Origin: Escherichia coli
Lineage (GTDB): Bacteria > Pseudomonadota > Gammaproteobacteria > Enterobacterales > Enterobacteriaceae
DNA length: 64,000 nt
Assembly (NCBI RefSeq): GCF_016026235.1
Contig: NZ_CP065613.1
Reading direction: 5' to 3' (one strand)
A program made the position numbers and the translations under genes. Under the pieces are notes generated by a model. The model worked only from the letters and a program-made list of their open reading frames with translations, searched no databases and was not told where the DNA came from. The first letter of the stretch is position 1. Every line of letters starts with the position of its first letter. This document shows, in pieces, positions 45,359 through 50,942 of this stretch.

Positions 45359-46282
45359 ATGAGAAAGACGGGCAACCGCCGCGAGCGTGGGGCAAAAACC
45401 ACCATCGTCCGGCGGCAGATCAAAAAGAATCATGCCGGGCACCACGGCGGGGCGTGGAAGGTGGCGTTCGCCGACTTTACTTTGGCAATGATGGCGCTGT
45501 TTATGACGCTGTGGATTGTCAACAGCGTCAGTAAATCCGAGCGTGAAAGCATTATCGCCGCGCTGCACGGGCAGTCGATTTTTAACGGTGGCGGGCTGTC
45601 GCCGTTAAATAAAATCAGCCCGTCTCATCCGCCAAAACCTGCCACCGTGGCGGTGCCGGAAGAGACGGAGAAAAAAGCGCGTGACGTCAATGAGAAAACG
45701 GCGCTGCTGAAGAAGAAATCCGCCACCGAGCTTGGCGAGCTGGCAACCAGTATCAACACTATTGCCCGTGATGCGCATATGGAAGCGAATCTGGAGATGG
45801 AGATTGTCCCGCAGGGATTACGCGTGCTGATTAAAGACGACCAGAATCGCAATATGTTCGAACGCGGCAGCGCGCAGATTATGCCGTTCTTTAAAACGCT
45901 GCTGGTGGAGCTCGCGCCAGTTTTCGACTCGCTCGATAACAAAATTATTATTACCGGGCATACCGATGCGATGGCCTACAAAAACAATATCTACAACAAC
46001 TGGAACCTTTCGGGCGATCGCGCGCTTTCGGCTCGTCGGGTGCTGGAAGAGGCCGGAATGCCGGAAGATAAAGTGATGCAGGTGAGCGCAATGGCGGACC
46101 AGATGCTGCTGGACGCCAAAAATCCGCAAAGCGCGGGCAACCGGCGCATTGAGATTATGGTGCTGACCAAAAGTGCGTCCGATACGTTGTATCAATACTT
46201 TGGTCAGCATGGAGATAAAGTGGTGCAGCCGCTGGTGAAAAAGCTGGATAAGCAGCAGGTGCTTTCGCAGCGAACGCGTTAA
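45359..46282 (+). CDS. lafU: lateral flagellar stator protein, MotB family (OmpA-like C-domain)
   Basis: Start at MRKTGNRRE (ATG 45359); TM segment FADFTLAMMALFMTLWIV; OmpA-like peptidoglycan-binding domain (IITGHTD...NRRIEIMV). Confidence 0.85.
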   Translation: MRKTGNRRERGAKTTIVRRQIKKNHAGHHGGAWKVAFADFTLAMMALFMTLWIVNSVSKSERESIIAALHGQSIFNGGGLSPLNKISPSHPPKPATVAVPEETEKKARDVNEKTALLKKKSATELGELATSINTIARDAHMEANLEMEIVPQGLRVLIKDDQNRNMFERGSAQIMPFFKTLLVELAPVFDSLDNKIIITGHTDAMAYKNNIYNNWNLSGDRALSARRVLEEAGMPEDKVMQVSAMADQMLLDAKNPQSAGNRRIEIMVLTKSASDTLYQYFGQHGDKVVQPLVKKLDKQQVLSQRTR

Positions 46283-46320
46283 ATGCTGAATCTTTACGCA
46301 TTTCTCAAACCCTGAAATCA

Positions 46321-46336
46321 CTGTATACTTTACCAG
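46321..46336. promoter_or_regulatory. LexA box upstream of dinB (CTGTATACTTTACCAG)
   Basis: CTGT-N8-CCAG SOS box about 17 nt upstream of the dinB start. Confidence 0.6.
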
Positions 46337-46352
46337 TGTTGAGAGGTGAGCA

Positions 46353-47408
46353 ATGCGTAAAATCATTCATGTGGATATGGACTGCTTTTTCGCCGCAGTG
46401 GAGATGCGCGACAATCCCGCCCTGCGCGATATCCCTATTGCTATTGGCGGCAGCCGTGAACGTCGGGGGGTGATCAGCACCGCCAATTATCCCGCGCGTA
46501 AATTTGGCGTGCGTAGCGCTATGCCTACTGGGATGGCGCTCAAATTATGCCCACATCTCACCTTGCTTCCGGGGCGCTTTGACGCCTACAAAGAAGCCTC
46601 AAATCATATCCGTGAAATCTTCTCGCGCTACACCTCGCGCATTGAACCGTTGTCACTGGATGAGGCTTATCTCGATGTCACCGATAGCGTCCATTGCCAC
46701 GGTTCTGCGACCCTCATCGCCCAGGAAATCCGCCAGACGATTTTCAGCGAGCTGCAACTGACGGCGTCTGCGGGCGTGGCACCAGTAAAGTTTCTCGCCA
46801 AAATCGCCTCCGACATGAATAAACCCAACGGCCAGTTTGTGATTACGCCGGCAGAAGTTCCGGCATTTTTACAAACCTTACCACTGGCAAAAATCCCCGG
46901 CGTCGGCAAAGTCTCGGCGGCAAAACTGGAAGCGATGGGGCTGCGGACCTGCGGTGATGTACAAAAGTGTGATCTGGTGATGCTGCTTAAACGCTTTGGC
47001 AAATTTGGCCGCATTTTGTGGGAGCGTAGTCAGGGGATTGACGAACGCGATGTTAACAGCGAACGGTTGCGAAAATCCGTCGGCGTGGAACGCACGATGG
47101 CGGAAGATATTCATCACTGGTCTGAATGTGAGGCGATTATCGAGCGGCTGTATCCGGAACTTGAACGCCGTCTGGCAAAGGTAAAACCTGATTTACTGAT
47201 TGCTCGCCAGGGGGTGAAATTAAAGTTCGACGATTTTCAGCAAACCACCCAGGAGCACGTCTGGCCGCGGCTGAATAAAGCTGACTTAATCGCCACCGCG
47301 CGTAAAACCTGGGATGAACGCCGCGGCGGGCGAGGTGTGCGTCTGGTGGGGCTGCACGTGACGTTGCTGGATCCGCAAATGGAAAGACAACTGGTGCTGG
47401 GATTATGA
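46353..47408 (+). CDS. dinB: DNA polymerase IV (Y-family)
   Basis: 351-aa [25 protein letters not shown]... Confidence 0.95.
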
Positions 47409-47857
47409 ATAACATACAAATAAGAAACTATCAGCCTGGCGATTTTCAGCAACTATGCGCTATTTTCATTAGAGCGGTTACGATGACAGCCAGTGAGCAT
47501 TATTCACCACAACAAATTGCCGCCTGGGCGCAGATTGACGAATCTCGCTGGAAGGAGAAACTCGCGAAATCACAAGTGCGGGTTGCAGTCATTAATGCAC
47601 AACCGGTCGGCTTTATTACCTGCGTTGAACACTATATCGATATGTTATTTGTTGACCCTGAATACACCCGCCGTGGGGTTGCCAGCGCTTTGTTAAAACC
47701 TTTGATTAAGTCTGAATCCGAACTTACGGTAGATGCCAGCATAACTGCAAAACCCTTTTTTGAACGTTATGGTTTTCAGACAGTTAAGCAGCAGCGCGTT
47801 GAATGCCGGGGAGCGTGGTTTACTAATTTTTATATGCGATATAAACAGCAACATTAA
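47405..47857 (+). CDS. yafP: GNAT-family N-acetyltransferase
   Basis: 150-aa ORF whose start overlaps the dinB stop (ATGA); no yafN/yafO ORFs lie between dinB and this gene. Confidence 0.85.
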
Positions 47858-48174
47858 ATCCAGCTTGCAATGAAAATAACGCAAGTCTAGTATGTGCGCG
47901 TTTTCTCATTCCACAAACTGCAAGGAGGTAAATCATGACAAATCCTTTATCAATGACTCTTTGCAGACCTTTCCAGGATTAATTCTTTTTTTCTTGCCCT
48001 GGATTCGTCTGCCATTTCCTGATTTTTATATTTATATACTCTAAATAATTCGAGTTGCAGGAAGGCGACAAGCGAGTGAATCGCCAGGAGCTTACTAAAG
48101 TAAGTGACTGGGGTGAACGAACGCAGTCGCAGTACATGCAACTTGAAGTATGACGAGTATAAATGGAATGGTAC

Positions 48175-48429
48175 ATGGGCAAATATATTCGTCCCTTATC
48201 CGATGCGGTATTTACCATCGCATCTGATGACCTGTGGATCGAGAGTTTAGCGATCCAACAATTACACACCACGGCAAATTTACCCAACATGCAGCGCGTA
48301 GTGGGGATGCCAGATTTACACCCCGGACGCGGCTACCCGATTGGCGCGGCGTTCTTCTCTGTTGGTCGTTTTTACCCGGCAAGACGTCGCGGTAACGGTG
48401 CTGGAAACCGAAGCCGGGCGTTATCCTGA
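48175..48429 (+). pseudogene. ykfJ: RtcB-like RNA ligase N-terminal remnant
   Basis: MGKYIRPL...[19 protein letters not shown] resembles an RtcB N-terminus; the frame ends after ~85 codons. Confidence 0.5.
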
Positions 48430-48709
48430 CACGCTGCGTTCGTCGGGGCCGGGCGGTCAACATGTCAATAAAACCGACTTGGCGGTACGCGCCACGCATC
48501 TGGCATCCGGTATTAGCGTGAAGGTTCAGTCAGAGCGCAGCCAGCATGCTAACAAACGGCTGGCGCGATTGCTGATTGCCTGGAAGCTGGGGCAGCAGCA
48601 ACAGGAAAATAGCGCGGCGCTGAAATCGCAGCGGCGAATGTTCCATCACCAGATTGAACGTGGCAACCCGCGACGGACATTTACAGGGATGGCTTTTATC
48701 GAAGGATAA
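48341..48709 (+). pseudogene. prfH: peptide chain release factor homolog RF-H, C-terminal remnant
   Basis: GGQ motif region ([21 protein letters not shown]) with no complete N-terminal domain; overlaps the RtcB-like remnant in another frame. Confidence 0.55.
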
Positions 48710-48765
48710 TGAAGGATGAAACTGCCGGAAGGTGATTGAACGCCATCCGGCAGCAAATCAAATAA

Positions 48766-50223
48766 TTACTTCGCCGGAATTTCTTTCAGCAGTTCAGTCA
48801 GCAGTGTCCAGTAATGACCTACGCTTTCGATGTGAACTTGCTCATCCGGAGAGTGTGGACCGGTGATAGTTGGCCCGATAGAAACCATGTCCATTTCCGG
48901 ATACGGTTTTTTGAACAGACCACATTCCAGGCCCGCGTGGATAATCTGGATGTTCGGTGTCTTGTTGAACAGGCGCTGATAGGTTTCACGTACCAGATGC
49001 ATCACCGGAGAATTAGCGTCCGGCTGCCAGCCAGGATATGCGCCTTTCGCTTCGGTTTTCGCGCCAGCCAGTTTACCCAGCGAATCCAGCATGCTCACCA
49101 CGTAGTCTTTACCGCTGTCGATCAGAGAACGGATCAGACAGTGAATTTCTACGTTATTGTCAGTCATGGTCACCACACCGACGTTCAGGGAGGTTTCGAC
49201 CACACCTTTTGCCACGTCGGAATTGCGGATCACACCGTTCGGGGTGGCGTTCAGCAGACGAATAAAGGTATCGCGAGATTTCGCAATCAGGGCAGCTTTA
49301 TCGTTCGCAACAGAGTCCAGCAGCAATGCCAGATTCTTCTCTTTTTCTGCCAGCTCGTTTTTCAGAATGTCCTGATAGGTATTCACCAGAGATTTCAGTG
49401 CGTCGACTTTATCAGCTGCGACAGCAATGGTCGCAAAGGCTTCACGCGGGATGGCGTTACGCAGTGTACCGCCGTTGAAATCGATAAGGCGCAGATCCAG
49501 TTCTTCCGCATGACCCGCCAAGAAGCGCACCAGCAGTTTGTTGGCATTACCGAGGCCAACGTGGATTTCACCGCCGGAGTGACCGCCTTTCAGACCTTTT
49601 AAGGTTAACTTGAAGGTTTCAAAACCAGCTGGAACCTCTTCACGATCTAAATGCAGGTTGGAGGTGAAGTCGATACCCCCCGCACAACCCATGTAGATTT
49701 CACCTTCTTCTTCGGAGTCGGTGTTAATCAGAATATCAGCCTGCAACCAGTTGCTCTGTAAGCCAAAAGCACCGTCCATACCGGCTTCTTCGGTCATGGT
49801 CAGCAGCACTTCCAGCGGACCGTGAACCACGTTTTCGTCAGCCAGAACCGCCAGTGCAGAGGCCATACCAATGCCGTTATCCGCACCCAGCGTGGTGCCG
49901 CGCGCTTTAACCCATTCGCCATCAATATAAGGCTGGATAGGATCTTTCGTGAAGTCATGCACGGTGTCGTTATTTTTCTGCGGCACCATATCGAGGTGGG
50001 CCTGTAAGACGACCGGTTTACGATTTTCCATACCTGCGGTAGCAGGTTTACGAATCAGGATATTACCTACCTGATCGCGTTCGACATGGAAACCTTTCTC
50101 TTTTGCCCAACCAACAATGTATTCAGCGAGTTGCTCTTCATGATAGGACGGGTGAGGAATAGAACAGATTTTGGCAAAAATATCCCACAGCGGCTGTGGA
50201 GATAATTGAGACAGTTCAGACAC
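48766..50223 (-). CDS. pepD: cytosol non-specific dipeptidase (M20 family)
   Basis: 485-aa ORF MSELSQLSPQPLWDIFAKICSIPHPSYHEE... Confidence 0.95.
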   Translation of the reverse strand: MSELSQLSPQPLWDIFAKICSIPHPSYHEEQLAEYIVGWAKEKGFHVERDQVGNILIRKPATAGMENRKPVVLQAHLDMVPQKNNDTVHDFTKDPIQPYIDGEWVKARGTTLGADNGIGMASALAVLADENVVHGPLEVLLTMTEEAGMDGAFGLQSNWLQADILINTDSEEEGEIYMGCAGGIDFTSNLHLDREEVPAGFETFKLTLKGLKGGHSGGEIHVGLGNANKLLVRFLAGHAEELDLRLIDFNGGTLRNAIPREAFATIAVAADKVDALKSLVNTYQDILKNELAEKEKNLALLLDSVANDKAALIAKSRDTFIRLLNATPNGVIRNSDVAKGVVETSLNVGVVTMTDNNVEIHCLIRSLIDSGKDYVVSMLDSLGKLAGAKTEAKGAYPGWQPDANSPVMHLVRETYQRLFNKTPNIQIIHAGLECGLFKKPYPEMDMVSIGPTITGPHSPDEQVHIESVGHYWTLLTELLKEIPAK

Positions 50224-50483
50224 GTTAAGTCTCCTTGTCGATCACCCGCAAAACAGTATTGCAGGTCACAGGGTTAGCAGAAAATGTTGTCAACACAAGA
50301 CAGGCTTGCGAGATATGTTTGAGAATACCACTTTATCCCGCGTCAGGGAGAGGCAGTGCGTAAAAAGACGCGGACTCATGTGAAATACTGGTTTTTAGTG
50401 CGCCAGATCTCTATAATCTCGCGCAACCTATTTTCCCCTCGAACACTTTTTAAGCCGTAGATAAACAGGCTGGGACACTTCAC

Positions 50484-50942
50484 ATGAGCGAAAAATACAT
50501 CGTCACCTGGGACATGTTGCAGATCCATGCACGTAAACTCGCAAGCCGACTGATGCCTTCTGAACAATGGAAAGGCATTATTGCCGTAAGCCGTGGCGGT
50601 CTGGTACCGGGTGCGTTACTGGCGCGTGAACTGGGTATTCGTCATGTCGATACCGTTTGTATTTCCAGCTACGATCACGACAACCAGCGCGAGCTTAAAG
50701 TGCTGAAACGCGCAGAAGGCGATGGCGAAGGCTTCATAGTTATTGATGACCTGGTGGATACCGGTGGTACTGCTGTTGCGATTCGTGAAATGTATCCAAA
50801 AGCGCACTTTGTCACCATCTTCGCAAAACCGGCTGGTCGTCCGCTGGTTGATGACTATGTTGTTGATATTCCGCAAGATACCTGGATCGAACAGCCGTGG
50901 GATATGGGCGTCGTATTCGTCCCGCCAATCTCCGGTCGCTAA
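50484..50942 (+). CDS. gpt: xanthine-guanine phosphoribosyltransferase
   Basis: 152-aa ORF with PRPP-binding motif [11 protein letters not shown]. Confidence 0.95.

Follow-up and report, generated by a model that had tools for sequence, protein, structure and literature searches.

A 15-codon open reading frame (ORF) downstream of yafP in Escherichia coli was analyzed in a 64,000-nucleotide (nt) stretch of contig NZ_CP065613.1 (assembly GCF_016026235.1), which is referred to here as the window. Comparison of its sequence across genera indicated that the ORF is a real, unannotated E. coli counterpart of the Pseudomonas leader peptide PA5471.1, and we consider it probable that it is the leader of a ribosome-sensing attenuator, orthologous to PA5471.1, that controls the rtcB2-prfH ribosome-repair operon. 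PA5471.1 is the leader of the P. aeruginosa operon of armZ (PA5471) and PA5470 (prfH) (Morita et al. 2009, as described in PMC3516279, PMC12057347, and PMC13041342); PA5471 (ArmZ) is an RtcB-family homologue of ykfJ, PA5470 is a release factor, and PA5471.1, with 13 residues, lies about 250 bp upstream. The leader ORF and its immediate setting in the window were as follows.

47923-47928, + strand: Shine-Dalgarno (SD) sequence AGGAGG, recognized from the sequence, with a 6-nt spacer to the leader ATG at 47935-47937.
47935-47982, + strand: leader ORF of 15 codons, MTNPLSMTLCRPFQD, with the stop codon TAA at 47980-47982; orthologue of P. aeruginosa PA5471.1.
Ending at 47857: yafP, the upstream neighbour of the leader ORF.

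The frame read ATG ACA AAT CCT TTA TCA ATG ACT CTT TGC AGA CCT TTC CAG GAT TAA. A preliminary description of this DNA, made from the letters alone, had placed AGGAGG at 47923-47928, the ATG at 47935, and the end of the 15 codons at 47982, all of which were confirmed on the sequence. It had also suggested a leader peptide or attenuator remnant of a former rtcB-prfH operon; this gained support from the conservation of the ATG, SD, and ORF across genera and from the orthology with PA5471.1, and the word remnant was apt, as rtcB2 and prfH both carry deletions in the window. An identical ORF was present in K-12 at 253239-253286. It had no annotation in the curated K-12 record or in PGAP genomes, and the peptide string was not found in the papers searched.

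The pattern AGGAGG-N6-ATG occurred once on the two strands of the window, against 0.19 expected, and 19 of 100 shuffled windows had at least one match. The pattern by itself was thus not significant, and the case for the leader is carried by the comparative evidence. The 172 nt after yafP were found in 5,391 of 5,426 complete E. coli genomes at 95% identity or more, and four E. coli lineages, two of them with intact rtcB-prfH, were invariant from just before the SD to 45 nt past the stop codon. Since divergence inside the species is low, with everything at least 95% identical, this identity was uninformative alone. A chance pairing of SD and ATG, whose conservation would only reflect low E. 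coli divergence, accords with the number of matches expected per window and with the near identity of the E. coli copies, but it was refuted by the cross-genus data: the element was conserved in Enterobacterales, Pseudomonas, and Ralstonia amid unalignable flanks, and a covariance model of its RNA matched the window once and unrelated loci not at all. We regard a chance origin as almost certainly wrong.

For the cross-genus comparison, loci (L numbers below) were gathered through the intact RtcB2 protein in a species-level genome collection, together with contigs coding for graded homologues, and were supplemented by PrfH-bearing plasmids and by a metagenome scan with a 19-mer from the non-Escherichia rtcB2 start, which gave 25 loci, 10 of them (six distinct sequences) being chance matches. 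Every gamma- and betaproteobacterial operon examined had a short SD-led ORF about 110 nt before rtcB2. A co-oriented intact rtcB2-prfH followed the leader ORF in strains BH100 and 2013C-3252, as it did in more than 15 other genera; in BH100, 112 nt separated the start of the ORF from rtcB2. The ATG, the SD, and a structurally equivalent ORF end were kept in Escherichia, Salmonella, Citrobacter, Klebsiella, Kosakonia, Cronobacter, Intestinirhabdus, Entomohabitans, Limnobaculum, Leminorella, Proteus, Providencia, Pseudomonas, and Ralstonia. The peptides encoded were:

Salmonella, MTLYSLNALCRHFQH; Citrobacter, MMTNSKNSICRHSQE.
K. oxytoca, MNTDFQNALCRPSQE; Kosakonia, MTQHALISLCRPFQD; Cronobacter, MTYTTLITLCRLTQE.
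Limnobaculum, MQQIQLNILCRRIQD; Proteus, MTTINMNTLCGQSQK; Providencia, 14 residues.
Pseudomonas sp. YH-1, MQALITLCRSRLA; Ralstonia, MRYTVPPLCGPRLG; IncC plasmid, MQNTSTSFAGLVR.

The leader had 15 codons in all 24 Enterobacterales chromosomal leaders except those of Providencia (14) and locus L021 (18), and 13-14 codons in Pseudomonas, Ralstonia, and the IncC plasmid. The genes upstream of it varied (yafP, dinB, a C92 peptidase gene, deoR, an amidohydrolase gene, and an asnC-type gene). Because the leader was present even where yafP was missing and the upstream genes differed, the element travels with, or belongs to, rtcB2 and not yafP. These sequence comparisons indicate that, across Gamma- and Betaproteobacteria, rtcB2-prfH operons have the leader as an ancestral component whose structure is conserved. 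In the comparison with intact rtcB-prfH operons that the preliminary description had named as a check on its proposal, the ATG, the SD, and the position of the ORF end were kept; the peptide sequence itself was not.

SD-led short ORFs were also present upstream of rtcB in Methylosinus and Aureibacter, but no similarity of these ORFs to the leader was detected. On an Aureibacter tunicatorum plasmid (Bacteroidota; L051, 540-650), a AAAGGAGG-led ORF of 10 codons lay 208 nt upstream of rtcB-prfH and was followed by a perfect 10-bp inverted repeat, ATTTCAGACA...TGTCTGAAAT; a strong SD is unusual in Bacteroidota, and this ORF may be an analogous leader. Locus L052 is the K. pneumoniae IncC plasmid pKpnB1_3 (134064-135775), on which a divergent rtcB-prfH operon with its own leader stands beside sul1, so that the ribosome-repair module travels with resistance genes on a conjugative multiresistance plasmid.

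The N-terminal half of the leader peptide varied freely across leaders. Toward the C-terminus an apparent motif, L-C-R..Q, was present, and it coincided with the nucleotides CUUUGCAG and CAGG. In L021 and in the IncC plasmid L052, the core CUUUGCAGG was read as F-A-G and not as L-C-R; in L021 a gain of 8 nt before the motif and of 1 nt after it left the start and stop codons in their structural positions. Leader insertions and deletions summed to multiples of three. In Proteus, Providencia, and Ralstonia, changes of the arginine codon to glycine (AGA to GGA or GGG) were matched in the downstream arm, giving the pairs GCGGAC:GUCCGC, GCGGGC:GCCCGC, and GCGGGCC:GGCCUGC. This pattern indicates that selection keeps an open frame laid over an RNA structure, and that the conserved C-terminal residues are by-products of RNA helices. 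A conserved nascent-peptide arrest motif of the erm or cat type was not found among the leaders, in which the peptide was variable and the conserved codons were read in another frame in L021 and L052. The same observations bear on the possibility that the 15 residues make up a small protein with a function in trans. Its strong SD and the apparent C-terminal L-C-R-x-x-Q of most Enterobacterales speak for it, but the conserved residues are helix nucleotides that two lineages read in another frame, the arginine-to-glycine changes were compensated in the RNA, the N-terminal half was unconstrained, and the substitutions Q3K and F4L had no effect in wild-type P. aeruginosa. We therefore judge a trans-acting peptide extremely improbable.

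The RNA that the ORF overlies could be described by four interacting segments and three helices, here called P1, A, and B, together with a pairing between an anti-TIR and the translation-initiation region (TIR) of rtcB2.

47918-47928, + strand: segment 1, CTGCAAGGAG plus the leader SD AGGAGG; 5' arm of helix P1.
47957-47968, + strand: segment 2, leader codons 8-11; CTCTTTGCAG is the P1 3' arm, and the overlapping GCAGAC (47963-47968) is the helix A 5' arm.
47972-48003, + strand: helix B, TCCAGG at 47972-47977 (codons 13-15) with its perfect complement CCTGGA at 47998-48003; its U-rich loop holds the stop codon.
48004-48019, + strand: segment 3 (anti-TIR), TTCGTCTGCCATTTCC, 22-37 nt after the stop codon; GTCTGC at 48007-48012, the perfect complement of GCAGAC, is the helix A 3' arm.
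48165-48177, + strand: segment 4, the rtcB2 TIR GGAATGGTACATG, with a weak SD and the start codon.

Segment 1 was complementary to 47957-47966 through nine Watson-Crick pairs and one G·U pair, and P1 was present in the minimum-free-energy fold of nearly every species. The block CUUUGCRG was the most conserved one in alignments A2 and A5. From segment 3, TGCCATTTC (48010-48018) could form seven Watson-Crick and two G·U pairs with the SD region of rtcB2, where GGAWTGG-N5-ATGGGCAA was conserved from E. coli to P. aeruginosa. GCAG belongs to both helix A and P1, and UGC to both helix A and the anti-TIR helix; the structures are therefore mutually exclusive, and the RNA can form either 1:2 together with 3:4, or 2:3.

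Pairs were counted on alignment A2 (MAFFT, 27 distinct leaders) and on alignment A4 (covariance-model alignment, 28 leaders). Copies with large loop insertions (the window, L006, L015, and P. aeruginosa) were mis-threaded by the covariance model R1 and were left out of the counts; Proteus was misaligned around helix A in both alignments and so was counted against the structure, while its compensatory pairing GCGGACA:UGUCCGC was seen by eye and in its own fold. In helix A (codons 10-11 with GYCYGC), 98% of cells were paired and three of six pairs had compensatory changes, the pair 65:129 being AU in 16 leaders, GC in 6, and GU in 5. In helix B, 92% of cells were paired, with double changes in four of five pairs. 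The structure combining helices A and B, which we assign to the ON state, was paired in 95.5% of cells, and seven of its 11 pairs had changed on both sides; none of 500 shuffles was as good, a statistic that ignores phylogeny and is inflated by the relatedness of the sequences, and slid registers were paired in 15-49%. The structure assigned to the OFF state, which combines P1, helix B, and the pairing of the anti-TIR UGCCAWWUCC with the TIR GGAWUGGUA, was paired in 90.9% of cells with seven double-change pairs, and 0 of 500 shuffles equalled it, with the same inflation. The anti-TIR:TIR pairing alone was 88.7% paired and included an AU/UA swap at 138:245. A further candidate helix, P5 (TTGCCC at 47994-47999 with GGGCAA in rtcB2 codons 2-3), was 77% paired, and 274 of 500 shuffles were as good; it was dropped because it had no covariation.

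Large insertions were confined to loops: the anti-TIR/TIR loop held ERIC forms in K. spallanzanii and several E. coli lineages, and the loop of helix B held stretches of about 180-190 nt in Intestinirhabdus and P. aeruginosa. Model R1 was trained on Enterobacterales and one Pseudomonas (sp. YH-1), and it scored 68 bits on the latter, a training sequence, 34 on the IncC plasmid, 24 on Ralstonia, and 13 on P. aeruginosa, whose low score is due to the 190-nt insertion.

A conserved RNA of this kind could instead be the site of a trans-acting factor, such as a small RNA, CsrA at GGA motifs, a ribosomal protein, or RtcB2/PrfH, with the ORF being incidental. Three GGA motifs (in the leader SD, in CCAGGA, and in AUGGAAUGG) and a conserved U-rich loop would suit such a factor, and PNPase, SuhB, and a small RNA influence armZ expression in P. 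aeruginosa. Against this, the ATG, the strong SD, the open frame, and a fixed stop codon were kept across orders with insertions and deletions in multiples of three, and the genetics of P. aeruginosa tie regulation to translation of the leader. A binding site of this type is very improbable as the explanation of the element.

To relate the two structures to translation of the leader, the RNAs of 27 leaders were folded with ViennaRNA while a ribosome footprint of 30 nt was masked at each leader codon, and mean pair probabilities were obtained as follows.

No ribosome: P1, 0.67; helix A, 0.08; outer anti-TIR pairs, 0.74.
Ribosome at the leader AUG: P1, 0; helix A, 0.79; outer anti-TIR pairs, 0.26.
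Ribosome from codon 8 to the stop codon: P1, at most 0.05; helix A, 0; outer anti-TIR pairs, about 0.76.

Without a ribosome, opening the rtcB2 TIR had an ensemble cost of 11.9 kcal/mol; the cost fell only with the ribosome at codons 1, 2, and 5, to 8.5, 9.1, and 8.1 kcal/mol, respectively, and was 10.9-12.1 kcal/mol from codon 6 to the stop codon. Of 14 lineages, 12 followed this trend. In the models, a ribosome on codons 1-5 favoured the 2:3 pairing and loosened the rtcB2 start, and the start stayed closed with a ribosome further along or with none. Stalling at the stop codon in the manner of tnaC was considered and rejected, since a ribosome modelled at the stop codon left the rtcB2 TIR closed and the peptide was unconserved. 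In the minimum-free-energy fold of the window transcript, CAUUCCA of the E. coli 5' untranslated region (UTR) (47907-47913) was paired with its complement UGGAAUG (48164-48170) in the rtcB2 initiation region; this pairing is probably fortuitous because it was unconserved outside Escherichia.

These results are consistent with the following mechanism for an attenuator of the PA5471.1 type. A dedicated promoter would yield a transcript with four interacting segments, in which segment 2 could pair with segment 1 (P1) or segment 3 (helix A), and segment 3 with segment 2 or segment 4. Ribosomes reading through to the stop codon would strip segment 2 from segment 3, which would then close the rtcB2 start, and the operon would be OFF. 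A ribosome held on the leader SD, the AUG, or the first few codons would cover segment 1 and free segment 2; helices A and B could then form, the anti-TIR would be partly withdrawn, and the rtcB2 start would be loosened, giving the ON state. The peptide product itself would have no role. Results reported for PA5471.1 can be set beside this scheme: an amber codon at Q3 or deletion of PA5471.1 leads to high ArmZ, complete translation of PA5471.1 has been proposed to let a segment 3:4 hairpin form and block expression, and induction results from stalls at Q3/F4 in a cca mutant and from ribosome-targeting drugs.

Damaged ribosomes may be the natural trigger. RtcB2-PrfH repairs ribosomes whose 16S ribosomal RNA (rRNA) has been cut at A1493/G1494, and ribosomes cleaved by colicin E3 initiate with about 75% efficiency, stop after a few codons, and give a toeprint at the start codon. 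Since decoding-centre damage of the colicin E3 type and many translation inhibitors arrest ribosomes at early codons, the operon would be induced by the lesion that it repairs. In K-12, according to a passage in a review citing Morita 2006, ykfJ was inducible by 4-azaleucine. A stronger proposal, which we put forward tentatively and hold to be possible but somewhat doubtful, is that the leader is a direct cis sensor of ribosomes with decoding-centre damage (by rRNases of the colicin E3/CdiA type) parked on the SD, the AUG, or the first codons, a position that alone would release segment 2 for capture of the anti-TIR and opening of rtcB2; that this module extends from Enterobacterales to Ralstonia with a translational output in enterics; and that the armZ-MexXY connection was a later co-option. 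If so, rtcB2-prfH would be a self-contained module that senses the broken ribosome and makes the repair kit.

As for the level at which the leader acts, the enteric version appears to act mainly on translation initiation of rtcB2. A translational output, possibly with secondary Rho polarity, is favoured in enterics because the covarying partner of segment 3 is the SD/AUG of rtcB2 and no canonical terminator was found. A hairpin followed by a T-run was not found between the leader and rtcB2 in the window, BH100, and K. oxytoca, and no intrinsic terminator was found on the + strand after yafP or within the leader; the same simple scan found no terminator in P. aeruginosa either, so that the terminator test is weak. 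The same leader might instead have a transcriptional output, in which full translation leads to a terminator or to Rho loading, early stalling prevents this, and the TIR pairing is secondary. For P. aeruginosa, attenuation of transcription by a terminator of segments 3 and 4 has been described in reviews and in a 2026 study. In enterics the sequence that follows the stop codon is rich in pyrimidines and poor in G, like a rut site, and an untranslated rtcB2 would be exposed to Rho in any case. Apart from the missing hairpin and U-tract and the covariation with the rtcB2 SD/AUG, it counts against this alternative that a 2025 review, which calls the leader control 'unique to MexXY', wants confirmation of the transcriptional mechanism and reports separate translational control through the armZ 5' UTR. 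We consider a primarily transcriptional output unlikely in enterics, and the two outputs are not mutually exclusive.

Several points weigh against the attenuator that we propose. In the models, the predicted opening of the TIR was partial, about 3-4 kcal/mol, with inner anti-TIR pairs persisting at 0.30; the position effect was not seen in the opening-cost scan of Pseudomonas sp. YH-1, and folding is modelled at equilibrium where the process is probably kinetic. A start-codon mutant of PA5471.1 (M1T) was reportedly constitutive as well; if so, the ribosome-free state would be ON, contrary to the equilibrium fold, and this would fit a rule in which the operon is ON whenever segment 2 is not read through. 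P1 was paired in 93.6% of cells on A4 with mostly invariant pairs and, being almost invariant, receives no support from covariation. The shuffle statistics are inflated by the relatedness of the sequences. The published model for P. aeruginosa is one of transcription termination and not of TIR sequestration. Translation of the enteric ORF is suggested by its conserved SD, ATG, frame, and stop codon, and the ORF was not found in the text of the ribosome-profiling supplement of Stringer 2021. Lastly, the target genes are destroyed in the window, so that no present function can be claimed for the leader in this strain.

The remaining features of the locus are listed here.

47865-47904, + strand: promoter-like element, TTGCAA at 47865-47870 and TAGTAT at 47888-47893 separated by 17 nt, with a GC-rich discriminator GTGCGCG and a T-run.
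48030-48158, + strand: ERIC/IRU repeat of 129 nt, in the loop between the anti-TIR and the rtcB2 TIR, outside the ancestral attenuator.
48175-48381, + strand: rtcB2 remnant, the first 69 codons, called a pseudogene by PGAP in strain FDAARGOS_943.
48428-48709, + strand: prfH remnant, called a pseudogene by PGAP in FDAARGOS_943.

The promoter-like element scored 8 of 12 to consensus, under the threshold of the scan. At least 18 of 28 leaders, Pseudomonas included, had TTGC-N17-TAnnAT at a constant spacing from their ATG; transcription of the leader would start near 47900. A constitutive promoter reportedly drives transcription of the leader and armZ in P. aeruginosa. The layout of a discriminator (GTGCGCG or ACGCGCA) and a T-run was also seen in L010, L011, L013, L014, L020, L023, L024, and L052, and it recalls stringently controlled promoters of the translation apparatus or UTP-sensitive start sites.

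This part of the window was 100% identical to FDAARGOS_943, with the gene order lafU-dinB-yafP-[rtcB' prfH']-pepD-gpt. A BLAST comparison with the intact BH100 operon revealed two deletions in rtcB2-prfH of the window: the first, of about 1 kb, removed most of rtcB2 and the start of prfH, and the second lies in prfH, where 48373-48442 corresponded to L002 4415-4484 (86% identity) and 48427-48769 to L002 4658-5000. The promoter-like element, the leader, and segments 1-3 were intact, and the ERIC repeat parts segment 3 from segment 4. With its operon deleted, the leader in this strain is a relic. The strain also lacked the yafN-yafO toxin-antitoxin pair, and dinB (46353-47408) overlapped yafP (47405-47857) by 4 nt; the order dinB-yafN-yafO-yafP was present in K-12, BH100, and ET5, and strain 2013C-3252 was likewise without yafN-yafO.

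The short inverted repeats that the preliminary description had noticed in the roughly 180 bp after the ORF are real, and they correspond to the 3' arms of the attenuator together with the ERIC/IRU repeat. ERIC/IRU repeats are imperfect palindromes of about 127 nt with many intergenic copies, and the one at 48030-48158 accounted for most of the repeats noticed; it is a mobile intergenic repeat in the attenuator loop and not a conserved element. The repeat was multi-copy, with a median of six places per E. coli genome, folded as a long hairpin of its own in the window transcript, and was missing in most other genera and at this locus in BH100, which marks a presence/absence polymorphism at the site. 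The only match in an Rfam scan of 46000-50500 was that of the ERIC copy to V_AS5, which at 44 bits fell below the gathering score of 96; nothing covered 47900-48030. Short or variant ERIC-like elements occupied the same loop in several E. coli lineages with intact operons (L003, L004, and L009) and in K. spallanzanii (L012, 2950-3010); this implies recurrent insertion or an old insertion that was repeatedly trimmed. The ERIC core TGACTGGGGTGAA (48105-48117) was identical to 16S rRNA positions 1481-1493, ending at A1493, the colicin E3 cleavage site. A 13-nt match to 16S rRNA was reached by two of 200 shuffled ERICs; the identity is probably a coincidence because it was noticed post hoc and ERIC is multi-copy, curious as it is beside a gene whose product mends this cut.

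The papers examined on repair by RtcB2/PrfH used heterologous promoters and did not mention the leader or the native regulation of the operon, and work on MexXY treats the PA5471.1 leader as peculiar to Pseudomonas. The RtcB2-PrfH repair and MexXY literatures, which do not cite each other on leader control, meet at this leader. New here are an unannotated, structurally defined enterobacterial leader of the PA5471.1 type, an RNA model supported by covariation, a covariance model for finding further copies, and a concrete suggestion for what triggers induction of the operon. E. coli annotations at present lack both the conserved 15-codon ORF and the cis-regulatory RNA surrounding it.

Among known systems, the leaders of toiL-topAI in E. 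coli and of hflXr and ABC-F genes in Firmicutes are generic sensors of perturbed translation upstream of genes that handle stalled ribosomes. Their sequences and structures are not known to be related to the leader described here, and they are not known to be linked to rtcB2-prfH. The trp and his attenuators share with it a four-segment logic that depends on where the ribosome stands on a leader ORF, but the enteric leader has no runs of regulatory codons, and no intrinsic terminator was found in enterics. Translational attenuation of ermC and cat is similar in that an SD-led short leader and four alternative segments sequester a downstream SD/AUG, which a stalled ribosome frees. It differs in that a specific nascent peptide and a specific drug cause a stall inside the ORF on segment 1, and it has no sequence relationship to the enteric leader. 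In the enteric leader segment 1 is the leader's own SD/start region, and the relevant arrest would therefore occur at initiation or in the first codons.

The closest relative is PA5471.1 itself. The P. aeruginosa armZ leader was MIQFSTLCRLRLA, with its ATG at -254; its Q3, F4, and 13 residues fit the published description. It has 13 codons, as compared with 15 in E. coli, and about 190 extra nt in the loop of helix B; the protein encoded downstream has been recruited as an anti-repressor of MexZ; and the published output is termination, whereas the enteric partner of segment 3 is the rtcB2 SD/AUG with no detectable terminator. In alignment A5, the SD context GCAAAGGAGGUU, CCCUUUGCAGGC, GGUCUGCC, and GGAUUGG-N5-AUGGGCAA were common to P. 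aeruginosa and E. coli. Both leaders also have the CUUUGCAGG core read as L-C-R, a downstream GYCUGCC, and an RtcB-family gene translationally coupled to prfH. In both, an early stall would mean ON and complete translation OFF, a logic that was reached independently from the enteric sequences.

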